Below the pieces are notes generated by a model. That model searched no databases, was not told the origin of the DNA, and saw only the letters and a list, made by a program, of their open reading frames with translations. Positions 3,802 to 48,587 of a DNA stretch of 64,000 nucleotides are shown here, one piece after another. Numbering within the stretch: the first letter of the stretch is position 1; the number at the start of each line of letters is the position of its first letter. A program made the position numbers and the translations under genes. The stretch lies in contig OZ024743.1 in assembly GCA_964016885.1 (NCBI GenBank), positions 164,362,001-164,426,000 of the forward strand. The letters run 5' to 3'. Origin of the DNA: Eledone cirrhosa. Lineage: Eukaryota.

Positions 3802-3842
3802 CGTTGCTGACGATAGCTAATAAGCTTGAAAGTAGTACAGCG
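3802..3842 (+). ncRNA. Type I hammerhead ribozyme-like motif (stem III imperfect)
   Basis: CGTTG-CTGACGA-T-AGCT-AATA-AGCT-T-GAAA-GTA-GTA-CAGCG; stem I CGTTG/CAGCG. Confidence 0.65.
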
Positions 3843-4811: not shown

Positions 4812-7800
4812 TTTGTGGTTTGTATGCATGAGTGTTGGTGTGTGAGTGTGTGTGAGTGCGTCGTGTTAATAAGTTGTTTTTTTTTTATGACCATGCTATA
4901 AAATGGAGGGGTAGAGAGGGCCCTTGAGTCTAGAAGACATCCTCTAGTGCTGGTGGCACAAATAAAAGCACCCAGTCCATGCTGTAAAGTGGCGCTGGTG
5001 TTAGGAAGGGCATCCAACCAGTGTATCAATGCCAAAACGCTTATCAGCACAGCAACAAAGAGGAACAACAACAAAATATGAAGATGTCGCATCTCAGAGT
5101 TGCAACACTTAATGTTGGCACTCTCAGAAGTAGATCTGCTGAAATAGTGGAGATGCTGGAGAGAAGGCAGGTGGATGTGTGCTGCGTGCAAGAGGTGAGA
5201 TGGAGAGGTGCCTCTGCGAGACTAGTCGTAGGCAAACGTCTTAGCTATAAGCTATTCTGGGTAGGTAAGGATGATGGGTTAGGGGGAGTAGGCATTTTCC
5301 TGGCTGAGAAATGGATCAATAAGACAATAGAGGTAGTTTGAGTTAGTAATCAAATAATTTAGCTTAGATTAGTTGTAGGCAGGAGACTACTGACAATCAT
5401 CTCGGCCTATGCTCCCCAAGCAGACCTAGGCAAAGATGAGAAAGACTGCTTTTACGAGCAACTTTTACAAACAACCGCAATGACAGAGGACGGAGACATC
5501 GTTATGCTAGCAGGAGACTTCAATGGTCATGTTGGACAGCTCCAGGATGGTTACACTGGGATACATGGTGGGCACAGTTACGGCTCAAGAAATGAAGAAG
5601 GAGTGAGACTTCTTGAATTTTGTGATGCAGGTACATTGACTATTTGCAACACAAACTTCCAGAAACCTGCCAACCACCTAATAACCTACAAATCTGGTGA
5701 GCACATAAGCCAGATTGACTTCTTACTAGTTAGGCAGCGGGACAGGCAGATAGTGTCTAATACCAAGGCATACCCTGGGGAAGAATGTACCCCACAGCAT
5801 AGGTTAGTTGTTAGTAATATCTCAGTAAGCAAGAGATGGAATGAGACATATAGGAAGGTGTGGAGAAGGAAGGTCTGAAAGCTAAAAGACCTTTCACTAA
5901 AATACAAATTTAGGAAAGCCCTTCAAGATGTATATGACGAAAAAGAAGCAGATTTAGAGAATAACTGGAAATTCTTACGTGACAACTTGCTGCAGGCTAC
6001 TGATGAAACTTGTGGCTGGAGCAGAGCTCCAACCAGACAGCGAGTGACCTGGTGGTGGAACAGCACAGTAGATAAGGCTATTAGAGACAAAAGACTAGCA
6101 TGGAAGGCTTGGAAAAAGGGTGGGAGTAGGGAAGAATATACAGCCACTAAGAGAGAAGCTAGACGTCAGGTGTACTTAGCACGCAGGGACGCGGAGAGTA
6201 GGAGGTTTGCCAATATTCTGCGACGGGAAGATCAGAGGCGTGCGGTGTTCCACATTGCAAGGCAGTGTGTCAATGCAAATCAGGATGTTGTTGCAGATAA
6301 ATGTGTCTGGGATGATGCCGGTGTACTTAGTGTCACGAATGATCAGAAAAAGGAAACCGGGAAATGTCATTATGAGAGACTGATGAATGTGGAGAACAAA
6401 TGGGAGAGAGAGAAATTACCCTTCGTAGATCCGACAGAGGGACCAGCTATTGAGATTGACGAATATAGGGTCCGAGAAGCGATTAGGGATAGCCATTGTA
6501 AGGCTGCTGGACCATCAGGAATAGTTGCTGAGATGCTGAAGGCATCAGGGGACGTAGGCACTAAACTGGTTGCACGCATCATCAATCAGGCTATATATGG
6601 TGGTGTCATACCCAAAGACTGGTGCAGCAGTATTCTCATAAATTGCTACAAAGGTAAAGGGGATGCTCTGGAGAGGAGCAATTATAGGGGTATAAAACTG
6701 ATAGATCAGTTTATTAAAGTGGCAGAAAGGATATTAGCACAACTAATTAGAGAAAGGGTCAAACTAGATGAGATGCAGTTTGGTTTTGTGCCTGGGAAGA
6801 GTACAACAGATGCCCTCTTCTTGGTGAGACAATTGCAAGAGAGGTACTTAGAGAAAAATAAGCCACTATACTTAAGCTTTGTTGACCTAGAGAAGGCCTT
6901 TGATAGGGTACCCCGATCTGTCATCTGGTGGTCCCTAAGGAAGCTAGGTGTTGAGGAATGGCTCGTGAGGACAGTGCAAACTTTGTACAGAGGTACTCTC
7001 AGTAAAGTCAGGGTAGGAATGGAGTTTGAGGAATTCCAGATACAAGTAGGAGTACATCGAGGCTCGGTCCTCAGCCCGCTCTTGTTCATTATAGTCCTCC
7101 AAGCCATAACAGAAGAGTTTAACACTGGCTGTCCATGGGAACTTCTCTATGCTGACGATCTGGTTCTTAGAGCAGAATCAGTAGAGGAGCTAGAGAATAA
7201 ATTCTGGCTATGGAAACAGCAGTTGGAAGCAAGAGGACTGAGAGTGAACCTAGCTAAGACAAAAGTTTTGATGAGTAGGAAAGAGGACAAAACCCTGATT
7301 CCGTCAGGGAAATGGCCATGTTCGATATGCAGAAAAGGAACTGGCATAAATTCTATAAAATGCACACAATGCAGATCCTGGGTACACAAGAGATGTAGCG
7401 GAATAGCAGGCAAACTAACAGGTAGGTAGAAATATGTATGCAGTAGATGTACAGGGAAATTAGACAGTAGAAGTCGCACTGATAGACACATTTTTCAAAT
7501 GCAGGAGGGTGCTATAGAAGTGGTGGATAGCTTCCGGTACCTAGGAGATCAGATTAGCATGGGAGGAGGGTGTTCCGAGGCCAAAGTATCTAGAATAAGG
7601 ACGGGTTGGAAGAAGTTTAGGGAGCTGCTTCCTCTGTTGACGAAGAAGGGTTTCTCCCTGCGTACGAAAGGCCGGTTGTATGATGCCTGCGTGAGGAGCG
7701 CGATGCTGCATGGTTGTGAGACATGGGCAGCAACAGCAGAGGATATGCGACGGCTGGAGAGAAATGAGGCAAGCATGCTCCGTTGGATGTGCAGTGTAAA

Positions 7801-8163
7801 TGTGCGTGAACGACCCAGCATAAATATGTTGAGAGAGAAACTGTGTCTGAGAGGAATAGAATGTAGTGTACGGGAGAGGAGACTGAGGTGGTATGGACAT
7901 GTGATGCGCATGGAGGATGACCGATGGGTGAAGAAGTGCCAGGAAATGCCAGTTGAAGGAAGACGTGGTAGAGGTAGACGAAAAACATGGGCAGAGGTGG
8001 TGAGAACAGACCTCAGATCATTGAAGATCACTGTGGAGATGACGAAGGACCGTGACGAGTGGAGATGACGAAGGACCGTGACGAGTGGAGAGATGCTGTG
8101 CTGAATAAGACCCGTCCTACCCTTGCAAGCATGGAAAAGCGGACGTAAAATGATGATGATGAT
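4812..8163 (+). pseudogene. RTE-clade LINE family A, near full-length decayed copy (APE + RT + PHD-like finger)
   Basis: ORF fragments 5078-8148 match the intact ORF at 45519 ([32 protein letters not shown]) with stops and frameshifts; (GAT)n tail. Confidence 0.93.
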
Positions 8164-16825: not shown

Positions 16826-18122
16826 GCTAACAAAAACGGATACAACTCTTAACACAAATGAAGAGATTCTACAGGAACTCAAGAAAATTAACACCAACCT
16901 ATCTGTGCTGGTCGACAAACTTGACTCCACAAATAAGGAAACCGTCACCGGATACAAACCCTCCGAAATCGGCGATAACCTCCAAAACCTTTGCGATACT
17001 ATCCAAACTATGTTCACTACTACCAACCCAGGAAAAACCAACGAAGAACCATGTGAGATTGATTCATACAAAATGAAAATTCAAACAATTCCAAATGGGA
17101 ACAAATCCCTCAGAGACAGAAAGTTCTCATTCTGGAAGATGATACAAAATCACAACAAAGCGGAGATATATGAAAAATGGCTTAACTCAACCCCTCTAAC
17201 TCTCTCCCGTAAAATACAAATAAAGTCCATTCCAAATGAATCCGAACCTCAAAGACACCTTAGGGAAAGAATGGCATTGGAAAAAATGAAGACAGAAATT
17301 GAACTTCTTAAATTGAGGGCTCAGACAAATGAGGAAAAAAATCAAAACCATCGATGAAGAGATCCTCCTGGAAATCAACAATAAAACTGAAGGCCCCAAG
17401 GTAGAGAAGATCTCCAAATTATGGAAAGGGGACTGCAACAGAGAAGAACTGAAATCCCTTCAACGCTGGGAAAAAAGTGCCGCTTGGTTCCTACACTATG
17501 AATCGACTTTTCAAACGGATTACACCTCCAATAACCCGTTCATAAAAATAGGAAAACCCATAACTGAACTGCACAACAACTTCGCAAACCCCCCAGCCAC
17601 TAACAAACGAAGAAGGAAGCACCACACCGAAGATGAACTTCCCAACCTCGCTACCATAAGAAGGAACAAAAACCCTAGAAATCATCTCCCCCAGAATGAC
17701 ATTTACAACTTTCCTCCTTCAAGGAGATACCATACCAAATCACTCAACTCCTACGCGGATGCCTCATCGTCAAACATAGGGAAAAGATACCACCACCATG
17801 ATAGATGTAACAACTTCCCCGCTTCAAGGGGACAGCAAGGTAATTTCCATTTTCTCAACTCTCACTTCCACAACAAACCCACACCACACGATACAACCAA
17901 CGTAGGCCACCTATAACACCACAATCCAACATGGCACATAGAAACACACACCCATACTCACAGTACAGGAACACCCCATTCAATCTACAACCACTAACCC
18001 GAACCACATTTTACAACAACAAGGAATATAACAAACACAGGAGACCACTTAACATCAGCAGACAACTCCTCTACCCCAACCATTTTTTAGACACAGCACA
18101 CAGATACAGGCAAACAAAATAA
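16826..18122 (+). pseudogene. Upstream ORF (ORF1-like, coiled-coil/basic) of the Penelope-like element, broken into three pieces
   Basis: ORF pieces 16770-17357, 17329-17916 and 17931-18122; first break at an A7 run; no recognisable domain. Confidence 0.6.
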
Positions 18123-20405
18123 CACAAGACAGGGAGGAGAAACCGAGAGTAATAAAAATTATCAATCTAACTAGTGCAGAACCAACACCCAACCTTATCA
18201 ACTTACTCTCCAAAGGTCTTAAATTCACACCGACCCCACTACGTCCTAACTACTATGAAATGAAGGAAGACATCACAGACTTCTGTAGAAAGTTACGACT
18301 CAGTGAAGAACTATTCGACCAGTACAATGAGGATGAATCATTAGCCAGAAATAGAAGCAATTACACCCCATCAAAAGGTAGAAATAAAATCCTGGACGAA
18401 TTCTGTGAACACATCACAAACTTCCCTTACCAACACTTGCACAGACAAAAACACAAGCCAAACCTCAACAAGAAAGAATGGGAAGAATTAAATAGATTAA
18501 AAACCGACAGAACCATTACAATTAAAGAGGCTGATAAAGGGAATACAGTAGTCCTAATGGAGACAGAATTCTATATCAACTTAGCGCTCTCCACTTTGGA
18601 AAACGAAACATACTACGAAAAGGCTGAACACTACAATCAACAGAAAATTATGAGAAACCTAAAAACTCTGATCAACCAATACAAAGAAGGACTCACTAAC
18701 AAGGAATTCAGCTTCATCACAGACTTCACAAGTAAATCCAGCCTTTTCTACGGTATCCCTAAAGTACATAAAAGCGAATTAATAAGTAAGGCATGCAAGG
18801 AAGCCACAGACAGTCATCAATGTCCCCTCACCCAATGATGTCAAATTAAGACCTATAATAGCAGGCCGCGCTTGCGAAACCCACCGCCTTAGCAACTTCA
18901 TTGATACCATTCTCAAGCCTTTTCTCAAACACATCAAAAGCTATATAAGGGACGACCTAGATATGCTCAATCACCTCCCTAATATGCCCCTTTCTGAACA
19001 AACCATACTAGTGACGTTCGATGTAGTTAACCTATACTCCAACATCCCCCACAACCTAGGAATAGAAGCTATCCAATTCTGGCTGGATAATTACCACAAT
19101 GAACTCCCACAACGCATCAAAAAAGAATTTGTGATAGAGGGACTCAAATTTATCTTGGAGAACAATTACTTCGTTTTCAATAACAAACCCTACAGGCAGA
19201 AATCTGGGACCGCTATGGGAACGAAAACAGCCCCCACTTATGCCAACCTAGTCATGGGATACCTGGAAAATCACCCTCTACACTAAAGTCCTAAACAAAT
19301 TTGGAAACACTCTCCACTTACACATAGAAAGGAACTGGAAGCGATATCTAGATGACTGCTTCATCCTTTGGCACGAAAACATCGAGAAACTTAAAGAATT
19401 TCACACCCTTATAAATGGGCTCAACACGAATATTAACTTCACGATGGAATACAGCCATCAACAACTCCCCTTCCTCGACATCCTCATTAAGATCCATAAC
19501 AAAAAAATAGAAACAGACATATACTACAAGCCCACAGACTCCAAGCAATATCTTCCTTTCAACTCTTGCCACCCTAGACACGTTAAAATTAATATTCCCT
19601 ACAACTTAGCCAAGAGAATCTGTACTATAGTCTCCAATAAAAACACCTGCTACTTACGGCTACAAGAACTAAAGGACACACTCATAGGCAGGGACTACCC
19701 TGCATCACTAATTGACAATGGAATCCAACGTGCCCTAAAACTCAGTACCCAGGACCTTAGACACCCTAAAGTAAATCAACCGAAACTAAAAGCTCTTCCA
19801 TACATCTCCACACACAACCCCCTCAACAATGAGGCCTTTGACACCATCCTCCAGAACATCCCTGTGTTGTAAAAGGACCATAGAATGAACCAAATCCTAC
19901 GAACACACGATATCATAAAGAGCAAAAGACAATCTAAGTCAATGAAAAACATCCTAACACATGCCAAAGTACTGCCAACCACAACAACGAAACCCAGAGT
20001 AAAAAAATGCGATAGACCCAACTGTGGCATATGCATCAACCTAATAGAGGGTTCGGAATTCTATTTCAAAGAAGGACAACGTTCTATAGTAAAACACAAT
20101 TTCACATGCGCATCAGAAAATCTAATATATGTATTAACTTGCTCAGGTTGTCGATAACAATACATAGGCCAGACCAAAAACAGCTTCCGCCAACGCATCA
20201 CTGTCCATAGATCCCAAATTAAAATACGGGAATACAGGAGAATACCACTGAGAACACATTGATACCTGTGCCGCCCAAAATCATCCCAACTTCAGAATCT
20301 TTCCCCTCTACAAATTTAAAGATAATGCCACCCACACCCAGCGCATCAGCAAGGAATCTTACTTTATTAACAAATACGGACCCCGTCTAAACACTTCTCC
20401 CTAAG
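18089..20405 (+). pseudogene. Penelope-type reverse transcriptase + GIY-YIG endonuclease, frameshifted
   Basis: ORF pieces starting 18260, 18963, 19444 and 19885 carry consecutive RT and EN motifs. Confidence 0.9.
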
Positions 20406-27756: not shown

Positions 27757-27835
<79 letters not shown>

Positions 27836-27840
27836 AATAT

Positions 27841-29401
27841 AACTGTAACTATAGACTTCCCTTCCAAACACCCTAACAATAGACTACCTGTATTAGAGAC
27901 AGAACTCTGGATTAACACTATAGACGAGAGAGCTCAAATTCTCCACTCACACTATGCTAAACCCATGGCCTCCAAATACCTGATACTCAAAAACTCAGCA
28001 ATGTCCAGTAGTGCTAAGTTTAATATTCTGATCGCAGATTTGGTACGAGTGATGAAGAATGTGTCCAGCATGTGCGACCCAACAGAAATGGAAGGACACA
28101 TCCAACACTTCATCAACCGCATGCAGTTCTCTGGCTACAACCAAAGAGACAGAGTCAGAGTATACGAAGGAGCCATGGAAAAGTATAAGACCCTCATAGA
28201 ACTGGACATGAAAGGAATTTGCCCACTATACAGGAGCAAATCATGGAATAGCTTAGATAGGGCTAGACATAAGATAGGGAAGGCCACATCATGGTACGAC
28301 AACCAGAGATATCAGAGTGTCATGTTTGTGGACGCCACCCCTGGAGGGAAATTAGCTAACCAGTGTAGAAAGGCCCTGAGAAAGACCCACTTAAAAATAA
28401 AGGTGGTAGAAAAGCCAGGAACCACCATAAAATCCCTGATCAGCAAAACCTACCCTTTTAAGAAAACCCACTGTACCAATAGGAAATGTATCATATGTAA
28501 GGTGAAGCCCCGGATAAACTGTAAAACTAGAAACGTAGTCTATAGCATAAGATGTACAGAGGGTACTTGCAGAAACACGACAACAACATACATAGGTGAG
28601 ACAGCTCGTAGCATAGGTGAAAGGATAGACCAACACTGGGGGGAACTAAAAGGACGAAAAAACGGGTCAGTACTATACGAACATGCTAGACAACAACATG
28701 ACGGTAACATAGACAACATAGAAATTAGAATAATATCTAAACATAGGAATGACCCAGCAGATAGGCAAATCAGAGAGGCCAGTGAAATAGAAATTAGAAG
28801 ACCAAAGCTAAACAGAAAGAATGAGTGGAACAACAACAACACCCAAACAAACAACACTGACCTAAGAGAAGTATAAATAAATAAGTAAATTAAATTAAAT
28901 AAAATAAGATAAATAAATACATACACAAGCACATAAACCCACACTAGTCACCCAGCAGACACAACACTATACACACTAGTCACACATCACACATAACACT
29001 ATACACACACGCAAACGCATGCGCAGAGAAGACAAAATAAAATAAGATAAACAAACAAGCAAATAAATAAATAAATATATAGACAGACTGAACAAAAAAA
29101 TGGCGTAGACATACAACACAACAGGAGGAACAATGAATATAACACCACTGACGATGTTGCAGATGTGCAACGAAAGATTTATGTAAATTATGTAAACTAT
29201 ATATATATGTGTTTGTCTATATTGTATCTGTATTATTTTTGACCGCCGGTCAGTCAATGGCAACATTGAGGACCGAGTAAGTTAGATCGCAGATATGTAT
29301 ATATAAAAGACAGCGAGAAGCGAAAACCAACCAAACAGTGAGTGTGTTCTGTTATTAATTCTGGCAATATTACGCAAATATGACCCTCCCCAAATATAAC
29401 A

Positions 29402-32730: not shown

Positions 32731-34575
32731 TTAAGGGTTCGATTTGTAGTGCGAAAATTTCTCTTTGAATCTATGGTTACAATAAATTGATCTCTCAATT
32801 TTATTGTTGAGTAACCTATTCTTCGAACTTAAGATGTGGAACAGCTCAAGGTCGCATAATCGACAGCTTCTCATACCACTCCGATATGGGGGCGCGTTTG
32901 ATAATTTTTTCCACTTCAGGGTGTATTGATGGTTACTTTCCCTTAGTTGCCAGGTCTTGATTGCAAGGGTAGTTACACAACGGTGCTGGGAATGTTTCAT
33001 TGCGTAACGGTGTGTATACCAACGAGCTTTAAAAGTATTCCCAGTCGCTCCGATGTAATACCATTTCTGGTTGTCTGATTCCACTGTGCATTGGTAAACC
33101 AGGTTAGACTGCATACATTCATTTTGTAATGGACAGGTTTCAGGTAGGTGGCAGTAACATTTCTTGTTATGGGCAACTTTGGCATTATTTGTGGGCTGCG
33201 ATGCCTGAACAAGTGTGTTACGTTTTGTTTGCCTATTAGCGGGTGGTTGTGTATTAGATATTCTGTTGTGTTCGGTGGTAATTGTATTGTTATTGTTGTA
33301 AATTTGTGTTTTGGTGTTGTTATGTATCTTTTTAGCGTTAAGCATCTTAATGTGTGCTTCTATATTTGGTGCCGTGGAGTAGGATAGTCTAATAGATTTA
33401 GTGTTAAGGATTTTGCTGTATCTCTGTGAATCTGGAAAGTGCCTATTTATTATTCTAAAGAAAGTAGAGGGTAGGTTAGTACTAATAGAGGTGTTAAATA
33501 TGGGGTTATACCAAATATATTTTCTACTGCGTGACTTGTTTGATTTCGATGTTGTATTTCTATTTGCCGTATACTTTGCAGTTCTATGCGTAAATCTGTG
33601 TATGCGTGTGTTTCTGGAGTTTGTGTTATGCGTGTTCGTGTGTGCTTCACAGAGGCTTTCATCTATATATTCTACTCTATCTAAGTGGCCTGCCTTGTCT
33701 AATGCGGTATTGTAGTATTCTGCATGTTCTTCGAAGATTTGCCGGTTAGATGAGAGGCGGGAGATCCTAAGGGATATGCTGCGTGGAATGGATTTAATTA
33801 TTGATAGTGGGTGGTTTGAGTTACAGTTGATGTATGCTAAGTTTTCATTAATCTTGTGAAAAGGTCTTATAAGTCCCGTATTTAGGTTAAGCGTCACATC
33901 TAGAAAGTTAACTGTTTTAGTGCTATACTCATACGTTATGCTAAGGTCTAGTTTTCCGAGAGTCTTTCTAATATTCTTACGGAGTCTTTCTATGCTCTGG
34001 TTATTTAGGTTCTTAACTAGGAGAAGGGCGTCGTCTCTGTAGATTCCACCGTGAAGGTCGCTAAACTCGCTTTGTAAACTATGGGCTATGTAAATACCTA
34101 CTAAGTCTGTGACTTGAGCCGAGTCGTTAGCCCCCATCGTGATGTCAAAGTTATTTAATCTATCCTTATGTTCCCAATAGGCGTTTTCAAATTTAATTAT
34201 TGTTTTCCTAGCAGCTAATATGATTTTTATCTCGTCGTCTGTTATGTCGGAATTGGCTTTGGCGAATGCTAAGGCTTTATCCAAGGTGTTGGGGGATATA
34301 GATGAGTAATAATTGTTAATGTCAAATTGTATAAATTTAGATACTTCTTTGTTAGCTATATTGTTAAACCATTTAATTGTTTCGGTAGCGTTACCCCATA
34401 GTTTAATCACTAGTTTATTCTTCATTTGTGCTATCATTCTGTCTAATATATGTTTACTAATTTTCCCGATGCCCGATTTGGATGGGCATATAAGTCTAAT
34501 AGTGGGGTTATAATCAAAATTTACCTTGTGGTCTTTGAGGTTAAATGTGGGGGTACATGGCTTATGTGGCTCCGT
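32731..34575 (-). CDS. Penelope-like RT + GIY-YIG (family Y-related), 5'-truncated but uninterrupted frame
   Basis: Frame open from about 34575: LKDHK..PTIRLICPSKS, FDINNYYSSI, ITMGANDSAQVTDLVG, GIYRDD, NLVYQC..YYIGAT, CRLC. Confidence 0.88.
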   Translation of the reverse strand, partial: TEPHKPCTPTFNLKDHKVNFDYNPTIRLICPSKSGIGKISKHILDRMIAQMKNKLVIKLWGNATETIKWFNNIANKEVSKFIQFDINNYYSSISPNTLDKALAFAKANSDITDDEIKIILAARKTIIKFENAYWEHKDRLNNFDITMGANDSAQVTDLVGIYIAHSLQSEFSDLHGGIYRDDALLLVKNLNNQSIERLRKNIRKTLGKLDLSITYEYSTKTVNFLDVTLNLNTGLIRPFHKINENLAYINCNSNHPLSIIKSIPRSISLRISRLSSNRQIFEEHAEYYNTALDKAGHLDRVEYIDESLCEAHTNTHNTNSRNTRIHRFTHRTAKYTANRNTTSKSNKSRSRKYIWYNPIFNTSISTNLPSTFFRIINRHFPDSQRYSKILNTKSIRLSYSTAPNIEAHIKMLNAKKIHNNTKTQIYNNNNTITTEHNRISNTQPPANRQTKRNTLVQASQPTNNAKVAHNKKCYCHLPETCPLQNECMQSNLVYQCTVESDNQKWYYIGATGNTFKARWYTHRYAMKHSQHRCVTTLAIKTWQLRESNHQYTLKWKKLSNAPPYRSGMRSCRLCDLELFHILSSKNRLLNNKIERSIYCNHRFKEKFSHYKSNP

Positions 34576-37500
34576 TATATAACTGCTCTGTAAAACAACC
34601 GGTGTTATTACATTGAGCTATTTATCTTACTGGTAATAAGATAGTAATTAATGACTATCTTTCACTATTTAGGGTTTGTATAAAAAATATATAACCATAA
34701 AAGGTTTTATTACATACATAACCATAAATAGTATCCTTAATACTAATAACTGCTCCATATTGTTGAGCTGATATACAATAAATTACCAGCATGCTGATCA
34801 AAGACCAACTCCCTGTCAACAAGAACATACCTATACCACCCAAAAATACATATGAAAAGTTATTGATCAACAGTGTAAACTCCTTTATCAATAGAGTGAG
34901 ATGGAGGACATTCCATTATGATAAAAACAAATCTAGCAAGGATAATAATACCAACAAATTTGACTCCTTCGGCTTTAAAACCTTTAGAAGCCCCCCTCAT
35001 AACACACTACTAAACCACTTCGAAAATGACCTAATAAAACTAGTTAAGAATATTAAATACAAAAAAACACCGTAATAAAAACACCTTCTTAAACAAACTT
35101 AGCACCTCTATTAATGATTTCAAAACTAGTAGTAACATTTTTGTACATGCCGACAAAACTAATAACATATACAGCCTGGATTATAATACTTATAGAAAGT
35201 TTATATATAATGAACTACATAAAAGCTACAAGAAAACCACTATGAAAAACTTAGAAGATATTAATATGGAAGGCTATAATATAGTATCCAAACTAGGGCT
35301 CCAGAGACATACACAACCTTATACCCCAAACCCCCCTAGATTCTCTCTTAAGGACCATAAGGAGGACTTCATTAGCAACCCCTCGATTAGACTCATCTGC
35401 CCCTCCAAGTCTGACATTGGCATTATCAGTAAAAAAATTCTAGATAAAATCATCCCTCAGATTAAACACACGATTTACCTTAAACAATGAGGAAATACGG
35501 GTGAAGTGATTGAATGGTTCAAAAATATCAAAGATAACAAGGATAAAAAATTTATTCAATTTGATATCAATTCTTACTACATCTCTATTTCCCCTATCCT
35601 ACTAAAAAAGGCACTTATAATGGCCATGTACAATAGTGACCTGACTAGACCCCAGATTGATGTCATACTTGCAGCCCGTAAAACACTAATCACCTTTGAA
35701 GACGAATTATGGACCCGCAAAGATACGCAAAACAACTTCGACATTACCATGGGGTCTAGTGACTCGGCGCAGGTCACTGATTTAGTCGGCCTATATTTAC
35801 TTAACCAAATCCATAAGGACCTTCCTCACCTCAGCGGTGGTTTGTATCGCGACGATGTACTTCTACTTATAGATTATAAAATATTCAGTATAGAAAGAAC
35901 TAGAAAACTATTCCACAAAACATTCAAAAACTATAACCTTAGTATTACCATGGACAAAAACACCAAAAACGTCAACTTCCTAGACGCCACACTCTACCTA
36001 GACTCAATGATATATGCACCTTTCCACAAACCTAATGAAAAACTCATCTACGTAGATACCAAGTCTAACCACCCTAAATCTATATTGAACTCTATCTCTA
36101 AGGGAGTATCTAATAGAATCTCTAATCTATCCTATGACAAACACATTTAACAATAACTCGCAATATAATCAGGCATTAGCTAGATCAGGCCATAATACAG
36201 GGATAGAGTTCCTACCTACAAAAACGCATAGCTACAACATTATTTCACACAACATGTCCATGAGAAAATTTAATAATAAGAATACCAACCACACACACAC
36301 TAATAGAGATGATAACAACAAAAGTAACCCACACCACAGAAATTACCATAGTAACATTAAAGGAAACAAATCACCAGACATAAAAAACAGAAATAGAAAA
36401 AGAAATAATACATTTTTCAACCCTCCTTTCAATCTAAACGTCTCTACCAACCTACCTAGGGCTTTCTTCTCACTACTGGATAAACACTTCCCATCCGGCC
36501 ACAAGTACCATAGCCTTTTAAACAAAAACACTATTAAAATCTCATACTCTACTACGCCTAACTTAGCATACCACATAGCTAGTAGCAATAAAAGAAAAAT
36601 TAATTCTTACTTCCAACAAACTAAATCACAACAGACGATAAACCTGCAAAATAACATTATAGCAACTAACCATAATATCAATAGAAATAATAGTATTAGT
36701 ACTAGTGTAAACATTAACGCTGCGAATGACAACCCACATAACCATAACCCTATAGCTAACATCCAAACTTCTACACAGCATATTAACCGGCAGACTAACA
36801 CCCAGAATAATTGTAACTGTAGATCAAATAGAACCTGCCCTTTAGATAAAAAATGCTTAACCAAGGATATCATATACTCATGTACAGTCACAACTAACAA
36901 CTCTTCTGAAACCTATATAGGCTCTACTTCTAACTGCTTCAAAACTAGATACAATTCGCACCTCCACTCTTTCAAAAAACACAGTCTAGCCAACTCCACT
37001 TCACTATCTAGCTACATACACTAACTAAAAATAAAATATATACACTTAAATGGGAAGTGGTAGGTAGTGCAACATCGTACAAACCACCTAATAAATTTTG
37101 TAACCTCTGTCTACTAGAGACCCATACTATCATCTTCTCTAACCATAATCTCCTTAATAAAAAATCAGAGGTGTTCGCATCTTGCCAACACCGCTTCCGA
37201 CACTCTTTCCAAAACTTTAAACCCTATATATAACAATGTCAGACTGGAACCGGCACCACCCCTAGCAATTAGCACACCTTACACCTCATCTCCACACCCA
37301 TTTATATACTCTATAGGTAATAGTGGCAGCATTATAGTACCATCTACCCTGGGGATACCCCCATGTACTTCTAATTCTGATATCTCGACCGTGGATTACT
37401 TAAACTGCATTGCACAAATATATGATTAATATAAACTGTAGACACGGTATTGGTTGTGCTAACATAATCCTGTGCATGGAGTGCCACCATGAGATAGATT

Positions 37501-39279
37501 GACGATTAAGTAAGTAATCTTATTATTATGCGACTATATATTCTATACGATGAGTACAATGAATTATGCAAAGGTGATACATGAGTTAGGAGTTTCTGTG
37601 TTGCTTGATGACCTGATTGGTATCTTTTGACGAGAGAACTGGTCCCCGGACCACCCTGGTGATATTTGAATTAGCCGGGGATGCAGTCATACAATGACCC
37701 GAAACTTGCCGGGAGTCTTGTATGATAATAAGACCATTATTAGTAATAAGACCCTTATTAGTAGTGAGACCCGTATAATTAATTTTGAAGTCTGACTCTT
37801 CTTATAGATTGTCCAGGTGTGGCACTCCATATTAGATTGTAATCATCATGATATGAACTCCTTTAGTACTTATTAATAGACTCCACTCTAATTTGTAGAT
37901 AAGATACCTAATTTAATTTATATATGAGATGGGAGTTTATGTATTACTTGATGGCCAGACTGGTGTCTTTATATGAGAGACTTGATCTCCAGACCACCCT
38001 GGAGATATTCAAACTTGCCAAGGATTCAGACATACAATGACCCAGAGCTTACCGGGAGTCACATATAAAATAATAGGACCATGCCAGGTCCTGCGGGTGG
38101 AACTACACTTACAAAGAACATTGATTTGGGGGTCTGACTCTTCTTATAGAATGTTCAGATATGACACTCCTTAATAGAAGGTAATCATCTTGATATATAC
38201 ACCTTTAGTACTTCTTAATAGACAACACTGTAACATATAGATACGTAACATAATCTAGAAATTAGTTATAGCAGCATATGATAGGCACTTATTTGAAACA
38301 CCATTAATGTAATTTAGGATAATAAATTTAACTAAGAAAACCAGCTAGTTACCTCCCCTTACGCATTAACTCCCCTTGGTCACACACACACTTCTGGAAT
38401 ATAATATCATCTCACAAAACTAAACAACATGATCTATTAATTAAGAATCGACAAGATACGGTTTATAACTTGGTTATATGCTGAACCATCGTGAATTATA
38501 TGATAGACCCGTGGTCTATGTATTGCGTCTCATGGATTATGTGAGTGGTGGTGTGCGCGAAGACAGTGGTACTGTTTTGCCTACGATATAATATGTTTTA
38601 TAATATGTTTGATATTTTTGATATTTTGGTGTTTCTCCACATTCGGGATTGTATATCACACAGGTGTATGCGAAAAAATGATTTAATAATTCAGCCCACA
38701 TAATAATATCGATTGCCTTCTTCAACTGCCTGACCCTGCAAGTAACAATCTGCCGCACTCTAATCCTGTATAAATAAAACGCGTGCATGCTACACGTGAG
38801 ATTGTTTCATACACTGACTACTCTAAACTTTCCTCTTGCTTTATCTTCATAAACTGCCAATGCTTCATTTTTATTTTTATCTTTATCCTTTAACCTTTAT
38901 ATGTAAATTGCCATGCTATATCATTTTGATGGATGTCATCCCACTGTGGGTCAATATGTGCATATGTTTTTATATGTCTCTTGTGTTGAAAAGGAGGTCA
39001 AGTATGTTATAGATCACTAAATAGTTGCTCCGAAGAATCCAAACCTCGGTTTGGAGGAAACAATTGTAAGCAAATAAATGATTTAAACTGAACTTTGATT
39101 ATTGTAATCTCTATATAACTGCTCTGTAAAACAACCTATGTTATTACATTGAGCTATTTATCTTACTGGTAATGAGATAGTAATTAATGACTATCTTTCA
39201 CTATTTAAGGTTTGTATAAAAAATATATAACCATAAAAGGTTTTATTACATACATAACCATAAATAGTATCCTTAATAC
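34576..39279 (+). mobile_element. Penelope-like family Y, full-length decayed copy
   Basis: ORF pieces 34791-37232 match the intact ORF at 56373; ~165-bp direct repeats 34576-34743 and 39112-39279. Confidence 0.9.
39025..39073 (+). ncRNA. Variant type I hammerhead (CCGAAGA core)
   Basis: TTGCT-CCGAAGA-A-TCCAAAC-CTCG-GTTTGGA-G-GAAAC-AATT-GTA-AGCAA. Confidence 0.78.
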
Positions 39280-44422: not shown

Positions 44423-45518
44423 CATATCAGTGAAAATTTTCTTTTCTTTGCTTCATATATATATATTATATATACTTGTCCGCCATTGCAAAAGGCCATA
44501 AATTCAAAATTTTGAAGAGAGAGGAAAAGAGAGAAGTGATCTATGAACTTGTAACATCTCACTGACCCCCCCCCCCCCCCGTCACCACACTAACAATAAC
44601 GCCTACACTCGCTCCCCACCATCACCACATTACTTTAAGATCGCTGTCCTGTCCCCTGTTGACATACTGCTGACTCTCTTTTGATGTATGTATGTGTATA
44701 TACATATGTGTATGTGTATGTGTGTGTATATGTATATCTCAGTGGATGCGACCAGATTTCAACACAGCAACAACTACAACAACAACAGCAGCAACACCAA
44801 CAACAACAACAACAGCAACAACACCATCGTCTGTGTTGAATGTGTGTGTATGTATTTGTATATATGCGACAGCAATAACAGCATCAACACCATTGTCTGC
44901 AGCAACAGCAGCAGTGAAATGAAGGACAACAACAACAGTAACAACTACAATAACAACTACAGCACCAACAACTGCCACCACCATCACTGACCATCCACCA
45001 CCACCACGCTGATACCATCCACCACCACCACACTGACACCATCCACCACCGCCATTACCAGCGTAAACAAACAATTATTATTGTTATTGTTATTATATAC
45101 AAGCCGAACTGGACTGGGAAAGGTCAACAGTTGACATGATAGTGATTTTGACGATTTTGACTTTGATTTTGTATCAGTACTGTCGGTAATATATGTATAT
45201 ATATATATATGTTTGTGAGTGGTGTGCGTGATTGTATGCATGAATGAGCGTTGGTATGTGTGGTTGTGGTTTGTATGCATGAGTATTAGTGTGTGAGTCG
45301 TGTCAATAAGTTTGTTTTTTTTTTCTAATGACCATGCTGTAAAATGGAGGGGTAGAGAGGGCCCTTGAGTCTAGTAAGACATCCTCTCTAGTGCTGGTGG
45401 CACAAATAAAAGCACCCAGTCCATGCTGTAAAGTGGCGCTGGTGTTAGGAAGGGCATCCAACCAGTGTATCAATGCCAAAAAGCTTATCAGCACAGCAAC
45501 AAAACAGCATAGAAAAAT

Positions 45519-48500
45519 ATGAAGACGTCGCATCTCAGAGTTGCAACACTTAATGTTGGCACTCTCAGAGGTAGGTCTGCTGAAATAGCGGAGATGCTGG
45601 AGAGAAGGCAGGTGGATGTGTGCTGCGTGCAAGAGGTGAGATGGAGGGGTGCCTCTGTGAGACTAGTCGTAGGCAAGCGTCTTAGCTATAAGCTATTCTG
45701 GGTAGGTAAGGATGATGGGTTAGGGGGAGTAGGCATTTTCCTGGCTGAGAAATGGATCAATAAGACAATAGAGGTAGTTCGAGTTAGTAATCGAATAATT
45801 AAGCTTAGATTAGTTGTAGGTAGGAGACTACTGACAATCATCTCGGTCTATGCTCCCCAAGCAGGCCTAGGCAAAGATGAGAAAGACTGCTTTTATGAGC
45901 AACTTTTGCAAACAACCACAATGACAGAGGACGGAGACATCGTTATGCTAGCAGGAGACTTCAATGGTCATGTTGGACAGCTCCAGGATGGTTACACTGG
46001 GGTACATGGTGGGCACGGTTACGGTTCAAGAAATGAAGAAGGAGTGAGACTTCTTGAATTTTGTGATGCAAGTACATTGACTATTTGCAACACAAACTTC
46101 CAGAAACCTGCCAATCACCTAATAACCTACAAATCTGGTGAGCACATAAGCCAGATTGACTTCCTGCTAGTTAGGCAGCGGGACAGGCAGATAGTGTCTA
46201 ATACCAAGGCATACCCTGGGGAAGAATGTACCCCACAGCATAGGTTAGTTGTTAGTGATATCTCAGTAAGCAAGAGATGGAATGAGACATATAGGAAGGT
46301 GTGGAGAAGAAAGGTCTGGAAGCTAAAAGACCTTTCATTAAAATTCAAATTTAGGAAAGCCCTTCAAGATGTATATGACGAAAAAGAAGACGATTTAGAG
46401 ACGTATGACATAGATAATAACTGGAAGTTCTTACGTGACAACTTGCTGAAGGCTACTGATGAAACCTGTGGCTGGAGCAGAGCTCCAACCAGACAGAGAG
46501 TGACCTGGTGGTGGAACAGCAGTGTAGATAAGGCTATTAGAGACAAAAGACTAGCATGGAAGGCTTGGAATAAGGGTGGGAGTAGGGAAGAATATACAGC
46601 CACTAAGAGAGAAGCTAGACGTCAGGTGTACTTAGCACGCAGGGAGGCAGAGAGTAGGAGGTTTGCCAATGTTCTGCGACGGGAAGATCAGAGGCGTGCG
46701 GTGTTCCACATTGCAAGGCAGTGTGTCAATGCAAATCAGGATGTTGTTGGTGATAAATGTGTCCGGGATGATGCCGGTGTACTTAGTGTCACGAATGACC
46801 AGAAAAAGGAGGCCTGGAAATGTCATTATGAGAGACTGATGAATGTGGAGAACGAATGGGAGAGAGAGAAATTACCCTTGGTAGATCCGACAGAGGGACC
46901 AGCTATTGAGATTGACGAATATAGGGTCCAAGAGGCGATTAGGGAAATGAAAAATGGTAAGGCGGCCGGACCATCGGGAATAGTTGCTGAGATGCTGAAG
47001 GCATCAGGGGACGTAGGCACTAAACTGGTTGCACGCATAATCAATCAGGCTATATATGGTGGTGTCATACCCAAAGACTGGTGCAGCAGTATTCTCATAA
47101 ATTGCTACAAAGGTAAAGGGGATGCTTTGGAGAGGAGCAATTATAGGGGTATAAAACTGATAGATCAGGTTATGAAAGTGGCAGAAAGGATTTTAGCACA
47201 ACTAATTAGAGAAAGGGTCAAACTAGATGAGATGCAGTTTGGTTTTGTGCCTGGGAAGAGTACAACAGATGCCCTCTTCTTGGTGAGACAAATGCAAGAG
47301 AGGTTCTTAGAGAAGAATAAGCCACTATACTTAGCCTTTGTTGACCTAGAGAAGGCCTTTGATAGGGTACCCCGATCTGTCATCTGGTGGTCCCTAAGGA
47401 AGCTGGGTGTTGAGGAATGGCTTGTAAGGACAGTGCAAACCTTGTACAGAGGTACTCTCAGTAAAGTCAGGGTAGGAATGGAGTTTAGTGAGGAATTCCA
47501 GATACAAGTAGGAGTACATCAGGGTTCAGTCCTCAGCCCGCTCTTGTTCATTATAGTCCTCCAAGCCATAACAGAGGAGTTTAAGACTGGCTGTCCATGG
47601 GAACTTCTCTATGCTGACGATCTGGCTCTTATGGCAGAATCAGTAGAGGAGCTAGAGAATAAATTCCGGCTATGGAAACAGCAGTTGGAAGCAAGAGGAC
47701 TGAGAGTAAATCTAGCTAAGACAAAAGTGTTGATGAGTAGAAAAGAGGACAAAACCCTGATTCCGTCAGGGAAATGGCCATGTTCGATATGCAGAAAAGG
47801 AACTGGCATAAATTCTATAAAATGCACACAATGTAGGTCCTGGGTACACAAGAGATGTAGCGGGATAGCAGGCAAACTAACAGGTAGGGAGAAATATGTA
47901 TGCAGTAGATGTACAGGGAAGTTAGACAGTAGAAGTCGCACTGATAGACACATTTTTCAAATGCGAGAGGGCGCTATAGAAGTGGTGGATAGCTTCCGGT
48001 ACCTAGGAGATCAGATTAGCATGGGAGGAGGGTGTTCCGAGGCCATAGTATCTAGAATAAGGACGGGTTGGAAGAAGTTTAGGAAGCTGCTTCCTCTGTT
48101 GACGAAGAAGGGTTTCTCCCTGCGTACGAAAGGCCGGTTGTATGATGCCTGTGTGAGGAGCGCGATGCTGCATGGTAGTGAGACATGGGCAGCTACCGCA
48201 GAAGATATGCGACGGCTGGAGAGAAATGAGGCAAGCATGTTCCGTTGGATGTGCAGTGTAAATGTGCGTGAACGACCCAGCATAAATGTGTTGAGAGAGA
48301 AACTGTGTCTGAGAGGGATAGAATGTAGTGTACGGGAGAGGAGACTGAGGTGGTATGGACATGTGATGCGCATGGAGGATGACCGATGGGTGAAGAAGTG
48401 CCAGGAAATGCCAGTTGAAGGAAGACGTGGTAGAGGTAGACCACGAAAAACATGGGCGGAGGTGGTGAGAACAGACCTCAGATCATTGAAGCTCACGGTG

Positions 48501-48587
48501 GAGATGACGAGGGACCGTGACGAGTGGAGAGATGCTGTGCTGAATAAGACCCGTCCCACCCTTGCAAGCAGGGAAAAGCGGACGTAA
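45519..48587 (+). CDS. Intact RTE-clade LINE ORF (family A): APE endonuclease, RT and PHD-like finger, 1022 aa
   Basis: Uninterrupted ORF; [49 protein letters not shown]; (GAT)n tail directly after the stop. Confidence 0.96.

Follow-up and report, generated by a model that had tools for sequence, protein, structure and literature searches.

The window analysed here, 64,000 nt of the Eledone cirrhosa genome (GCA_964016885.1, contig OZ024743.1, positions 164,362,001–164,426,000 of the forward strand), carries two related Penelope-like elements (PLEs) on opposite strands. The minus-strand insertion has an intact reading frame and two pseudo-LTRs (pLTRs), each with one hammerhead motif; the hammerhead of the plus-strand element, at 39025, is without a partner in its own insertion (Table 1).

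Table 1. The two elements and the anatomy of their hammerhead motifs, in window positions.
Feature	Position	Strand	Remarks
Second element, bearing the 39025 hammerhead	34577..39279	+	ORF region 84% identical to the first element; ORF in pieces
Type I minimal hammerhead, AATT subfamily	39025..39073	+	Sole hammerhead of its insertion
Core C3-C4-G5-A6-A7-G8-A9 (U4C variant), CCGAAGA	39030..39036	+	Sequence anatomy and genome counts
A10.1, 7-bp stem II with CTCG loop, G11.1	39037..39056	+	Sequence anatomy
Self-complementary stem III 8-mer ACAATTGT, predicted dimer helix	39060..39067	+	Duplex energies, covariation
Predicted scissile bond, after GUA	39068..39069	+	Inferred from hammerhead numbering
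3' pLTR, ending in a (TA)n-rich microsatellite	54676..55350	-	99.85% identical to the 5' pLTR
Hammerhead, AGCT subfamily, in the 3' pLTR	54883..54929	-	Predicted cut between 54887 and 54886
Intact 832-aa ORF, RT and C-terminal GIY-YIG-type nuclease	56373..58871	-	Hydra-clade motifs RVRWR, DKT, CxCx5C, CxxC, CxH, YRDD
5' pLTR	58879..59549	-	99.85% identical to the 3' pLTR
Hammerhead, AGCT subfamily, in the 5' pLTR	59082..59128	-	4,199 nt from the 3' copy

The intact ORF has the features listed for the Hydra clade in section 11 of PMC8557442, the part of that paper used for this comparison: an RWK-type motif (RVRWR, position 49), DKT (136), the CxCX5C linker (CNCRANRTC, 691), CxxC (CNLC, 789), CxH (CQH, 817) and a C-terminal nuclease, the position of which rules out an assignment to Naiad. 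The (TA)n insertion preference and the pLTR/tandem structure of the clade were found as well. Pfam and PDB sequence searches with the 832-aa ORF returned no family and no match; its best named homologs are mollusc proteins at 33–39% identity. When 136 RT hits from the 3.0-Gb genome were scored, 52 proved 100% identical to the query, the window included, most of them in 832-aa frames, which indicates that the family is young and the element active. Parts of the element are covered by contigs from four runs and three organisms, contigs being unable to show RNA ends. Going by protein motifs and (TA)n targets rather than by a reference tree, we assign the host to the Hydra clade as a young Penelope-like element.

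Several other elements share the window. A sister Hydra-type family (32731–34617 on the minus strand, and the 3' UTR at loci L087–L113), 67% identical in nucleotide sequence over part of the RT, shows, at 25 of 30 loci, only half of the core (GAAAC-GGTC-GTA) plus an 8-mer that is self-complementary; no CYGANGA was found within 250 nt upstream of this half core, and the hammerhead may be degenerate or split. Among the non-LTR retrotransposon ORFs, which we take to be RTE-type, are those at 45513–48587(+), 5363–8068(+) and 60112–61842(-); one, 1,024 aa long, is apparently intact. Further Penelope-like fragments lie at 18053–19872 and 27815–28876, and all of these are within (TA)n-rich sequence. 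Canonical CTGA-core motifs resembling the minimal hammerheads of other families occur at 3807(+), 16447(+) and 24549(+), the first two with U·U at 10.1/11.1 and a 6-nt stem III. In the second element, the long 3' UTR also contains two tandem copies of ∼340 nt, 72% identical to each other (37577–37915 and 37920–38257, plus strand).

A 32-nt core was found at 39030–39061(+), 54894–54925(-) and 59093–59124(-), and 0 of 100 shuffled sequences matched it. Each of the three sites has the CCGAAGA core with C4 and the GUA triplet that the first-pass annotation had reported, and we confirm that they are a genuine hammerhead motif. Three helices surround the core in the type I architecture, open at stem I; six positions of the canonical core C3 U4 G5 A6 N7 G8 A9 fit and U4 is replaced by C. 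G12 A13 A14, the A15.1–U16.1 pair and an NUH triplet are present as GAA, A-U and GUA in the window, with GUC or GUA in relatives. In place of a purine–pyrimidine pair at 10.1–11.1 there is A·G. Stem I is TTGCT/AGCAA in the plus-strand copy and 4 bp long (TGCT/AGCA) in the minus-strand copies. In the plus-strand copy, stem II and its loop read TCCAAAC-CTCG-GTTTGGA between A10.1 and G11.1, after which come GAA, stem III (ACAATTGT) and A17; stem III of both minus-strand copies is ACAGCTGT. This anatomy, and a location in the pLTR of a PLE such as is typical of dimer-type minimal PLE hammerheads, bear out the earlier identification as a Penelope-type minimal hammerhead. None of the 150 listed of 224 Rfam matches to the window was a hammerhead, two focused Rfam scans of the motif, with matches considered up to E=10, likewise turned up no hammerhead family, and a degenerate-motif scan of metagenomes found 0.

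All three copies announced by that annotation are present, but the two on the minus strand are the pLTRs of a single insertion, and the window thus holds two independent versions of the motif, not three. Between these two subfamilies 46 of 48 motif positions are identical versus 213 of 284 flank positions (Fisher p=5e-4): the motif has diverged less than its surroundings. This comparison, together with the lineage-wide C4 and the stem covariation described below, sustains the claim that the motif is under selection, a conclusion that we draw from comparative data.

Exact 35-mer counts across the genome gave 3,749 copies with CCG, 27 with CTG (U4 revertants) and 45 with CCA (G5A decay copies). 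U4 copies are not commoner than the opposite-strand CpG change (27 versus 45), and on the flank tree the CTG rows occur singly, at scattered places. A relaxed-pattern search for older relatives, in which the pattern required CCGA and left out the A7 of the window family, produced 3,948 hits against a reversed-control count of 675. Because it was conditioned on CCGA, this search does not reach U4 sister families whose stem II sequences differ. Where ORF remains are present upstream of older C4 motifs, most stretches of them share 60–85% identity with the window ORF; for a short-stem C4 family the figure is 36–49%, in the nuclease region. When the main older group was searched without conditioning on the core, the first 100 of 684 motifs, scored by eye, comprised 87 CCG, 8 CTG and 5 CCA. 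The copy counts and the carriage of C4 by older families indicate that C4 is the family state, an old trait across the lineage, and not decay.

Among the C4 motifs seen, the most distant (loci L292:1487–1546(-), L294, L300, L302 and L306) have a short stem II with G10.1–C11.1 or A-U, and a stem III of ACATATGT, ACACGTGT or ACATGTGT. Position 11.1 is A, U or C in the older C4 families, which rules out that C4 originated through pairing with G11.1 in some inactive structure; such pairing, with a predicted probability of 0.41–0.61 in the window copies, may still dampen the youngest family.

Stem II had been described as invariant, which fails beyond the window: at one pair, the first 100 of 684 motifs in the older group show A-U in 90, G-C in 8, G·U in 2 and A·C in 0. 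The A·G at its base is present in the window copies as annotated, but a selected A·G pair is ruled out by the variability of 10.1/11.1 among 83 older motifs, drawn from the pattern hits and from loci fetched around those hits (UA 54, CA 9, AA 6, GC 5, CU 4, AU 2, UU 2, CC 1). Judged from this comparison, the site is tolerant and A·G one of its several states; U·U occupies it in 14 of 26 published Hydra-clade rows in the accessible part of PMC8557442. Loop II varies freely in older families. Two candidate upstream pairings, of GAAAAGGAGGUCA with loop II and of GGCUG with stem III, are unsupported beyond one lineage and were dropped because of this freedom of loop II. A purine-rich conserved block, TGAAAAGGAGGTCA, lies ∼25–30 nt upstream of stem I at 38987–39000(+) and at the equivalent positions of both pLTRs, and older families have related forms of it, GAATAGGAGGTTA.

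Stem III is self-complementary across many subfamilies, as supposed, although the palindrome is not always perfect. Of 93 copies of the window family, 33 have AATT, 15 AGTT and 45 AGCT, and on the flank tree these three states are linked as a chain. Besides the two stem III forms of the window there is thus a third common one, ACAGTTGT, whose self-complementarity depends on G·U pairs. Genome-wide, 653 copies carry AGTT, the G·U intermediate, versus 12 with AACT, the A·C intermediate, an asymmetry expected for pairing of RNA and not of DNA. Stem III is self-complementary in 74 of the 83 older motifs, the remaining nine all being singletons; the commonest forms are GATT (43), AATT (18), GATC (6) and ACGT (4). 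In 24 representatives, hand-chosen and mutually related, all stem III cells are paired and both variable pairs show double changes, counted as sequences rather than as events. Over all three helices of this set, stems I–III, 91% of cells are paired, with a covariation score of 0.246 that was equalled in 0 of 500 shuffles and compares with 0.03–0.08 for slid controls.

The short stem III appears unable to fold alone, no 8-mer being predicted to form a hairpin. Predicted duplex energies are -11.1 kcal/mol for AGCU, -6.4 for AAUU, -3.4 for AGUU and -1.0 for AACU, and the constrained dimer lies 8–16 kcal/mol below two constrained monomers. The unconstrained lowest-energy folds are not the active fold, and the cofold minimum differs from the fully active dimer. 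Because the 8-mer is not predicted to form a hairpin and its self-complementarity is kept, covariation and folding energies suggest that two motifs likely pair through stem III.

If the motif cuts in vivo, insertions could retain traces of it. The 3' ends of 45 sampled AGCT copies all lie downstream of the predicted cut, at +46/47 in 24 copies and reaching +210/211 in 21, which implies that the templates were uncut or re-ligated at this site. The 5' junctions were counted among ∼2,019 read-through AGCT copies and ∼1,730 AATT copies, numbers that serve as totals only, since the ambiguity codes behind them also admit the true base. At offset 0, the first base after GUA, 16 of 22 hits in the AGCT subfamily were junctions (15 events). 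Neighbouring positions gave 1/1 hits at -9, 2/5 at -3, 3/9 at -2, 1/7 at -1, 5/13 at +1, 2/11 at +2 and 3/8 at +18. Set against the upstream background of ∼3.6 junctions per nt (16 of 45 copies within 200 nt), the 15 events have a Poisson p of ∼6e-6 for a uniform background, and none of the symmetric junctions makes use of the 8-nt palindrome. The background is not uniform, since a larger peak, composed mostly of AT-microhomology fold-backs, stands away from the cut site at +6 (27 of 30 inspected, among 41 hits). Several offset-0 junctions also have 1–4 nt of microhomology. The offset-0 peak was absent from the AATT subfamily, which had one junction at 0, two at -1 and one at +1; 3 of 91 sampled AATT copies start at -2. 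A peak in AGCT, which has the strongest predicted duplex, and none in AATT would agree with the dimer model, a reading made post hoc. We regard the single junction peak as a lead, not proof, that cutting occasionally takes place in vivo. Many very short tail-to-tail inverted insertions (∼40 nt plus 40–210 nt; loci L139–L168) were also seen inside (TA)n, joined at AT microhomology 6–9 nt downstream of the predicted cut.

The reading that we favour, with a probability of roughly 0.6, is that the motif is a slow, dimer-dependent minimal hammerhead of type I in the pLTR of an active Hydra-clade PLE, with C4 fixed in the lineage. Cleavage would be slow, after GUA, and would probably occur only when two motifs pair via the self-complementary stem III; the low rate is suggested by analogy with the effect reported for U4C in a viroid. 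With slow cutting, most transcripts would still be uncut, or have been re-ligated, when reverse transcription sets out from a point 47 or 211 nt downstream and traverses the motif. The stem III partner could sit in the other pLTR of that RNA, could be a separate RNA, or could require the element's protein. An intermolecular dimer or cleavage assisted by protein, in the manner of the accessible account in PMC11167929, would fit as well as the pair of co-transcribed pLTRs proposed in the first-pass annotation.

A hammerhead-shaped element that is catalytically silent, kept for RNA dimerization or protein binding near the starts of reverse transcription, with C4 marking lost catalysis, would equally leave the site read through in every intact copy and the AATT subfamily without a junction peak. 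The anole PLE, in which cleavage is dispensable in vitro (PMC11167929, as far as accessible), and the sister family, which keeps GAAAC-palindrome-GUA in 25 of 30 loci with no recognizable 5' core, lend this some plausibility. We nevertheless consider it unlikely: C3, G5, A6, G8, A9, G12, A13, A14 and NUH are fixed, in part as set by the search pattern, whereas N7, 10.1/11.1 and N17 (any base except G in the pattern-defined set) vary as they do in active hammerheads, and the AGCT junction peak falls exactly on the predicted bond.

Cleavage might otherwise depend on protein assistance rather than on a dimer, the RT-nuclease protein folding the ribozyme so that U4C costs little. This too seems quite improbable as a replacement for dimerization, with which it could operate jointly, since taken alone it leaves unexplained the paired covariation at the centre of the 8-mer, a loop in a monomer; in its favour, free RNA is predicted to fold into inactive structures, and the anole PLE hammerhead cleaved only when its protein was present (PMC11167929, available part). 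Very unlikely, finally, is that C4 arose in a founder as a tolerated, nearly neutral change to an otherwise ordinary minimal PLE hammerhead, neither selected nor attenuating here: a single origin could account for all the families, which share flanks, the wider search was conditioned on C4, and the viroid with U4C stays infectious (PMC3088659, in the part consulted), yet C4 lies in a CpG whose commonest decay gives back U4 and no U4 family appeared in the two groups tested, despite flank divergence of several substitutions per site (a rough internal tree length of 6.7 from a short alignment).

The favoured reading, a slow dimer-dependent hammerhead, combines known parts. Minimal type I hammerheads of metazoan PLEs, with low activity in vitro, have been proposed to act as dimers (Cervera and de la Pena, 2014; PMC4209133), and small PLE hammerheads with a short palindromic stem III cleave as dimers (Lunse, Weinberg and Breaker, 2017, cited in PMC6765202). 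The window family resembles the former in pLTR location, a stem II of 7–8 bp, a stem I of 4–5 bp and a small palindromic helix III, and the latter in stem III and PLE association. The consensus of PMC4209133, however, is CUGANGA with a conserved G10.1–C11.1 and a core variant U3–A8, in contrast to C4 and A·G here, and no CCGA core appears in its text and supplements, as far as covered.

The Hydra-clade hammerheads of Craig et al. (2021; PMC8557442) are like ours in clade, by protein motifs, and in (TA)n targets; their stem III halves are also complementary over 8–10 nt, and a mismatch at 10.1/11.1 is common. They were found with a CUGA descriptor and have a ctga core in all 26 rows, whereas the window family has CCGA; the octopus family listed there has a different motif, and the motif strings of the window family are absent from the accessible supplement. 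A natural viroid variant has the same U4C substitution (Ambros and Flores, 1998; PMC3088659), which reportedly lowers activity in vitro considerably and allows infectivity, but it is rare there and stands in a full hammerhead with tertiary contacts, as against fixation in thousands of genomic copies from several retroelement families here. In the anole Poseidon PLE (Frangieh et al., 2024; PMC11167929), two start sites are likewise described, with two alternative 3' ends of insertions ('tail'), and the RNA template is unprocessed; that element belongs to another clade and has been shown to be protein-assisted, and no dimer test of the anole hammerhead was seen in the part available. Nothing bearing on C4 was met in the accessible parts of PMC7229834, PMC11014351, PMC3884650, PMC3907566 and a 2026 retrozyme preprint. 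We found no report of U4C fixed in retrotransposon hammerheads in the texts and supplements searched, a provisional result since published alignments and figures, those of Lunse 2017 among them, may already include such a core. The dimer model is therefore already established and U4C is known from the viroid, while its fixation across a PLE lineage is, provisionally, apparently new.

A stronger version of our reading is doubtful. It would have the lineage actively keep a slowed core, at a CpG that mutates back to U, as a timer, with dimer-dependent cutting after, or rarer than, reverse transcription through the site; the 5' junctions at the scissile bond would be a fossil of cutting in vivo, and CCGA hammerheads would make up a large class that neither CUGA-based searches nor Rfam detect.

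The role of hammerheads in Penelope-like elements is left unresolved in the literature, as far as the accessible parts of PMC8557442 and PMC11167929 go. That stem III changes run solely via G·U provides comparative evidence for RNA-level pairing between two motifs. Descriptors anchored on CUGA overlook roughly 7,000 motifs in this genome, as does Rfam: 3,749 exact copies and, in excess of the control, about 3,270 further hits. Some Penelope families reported to be without a hammerhead may therefore carry such variants. With an active element, a fixed core variant, stem III duplexes graded in predicted strength and thousands of datable insertions, this lineage constitutes a natural test series.
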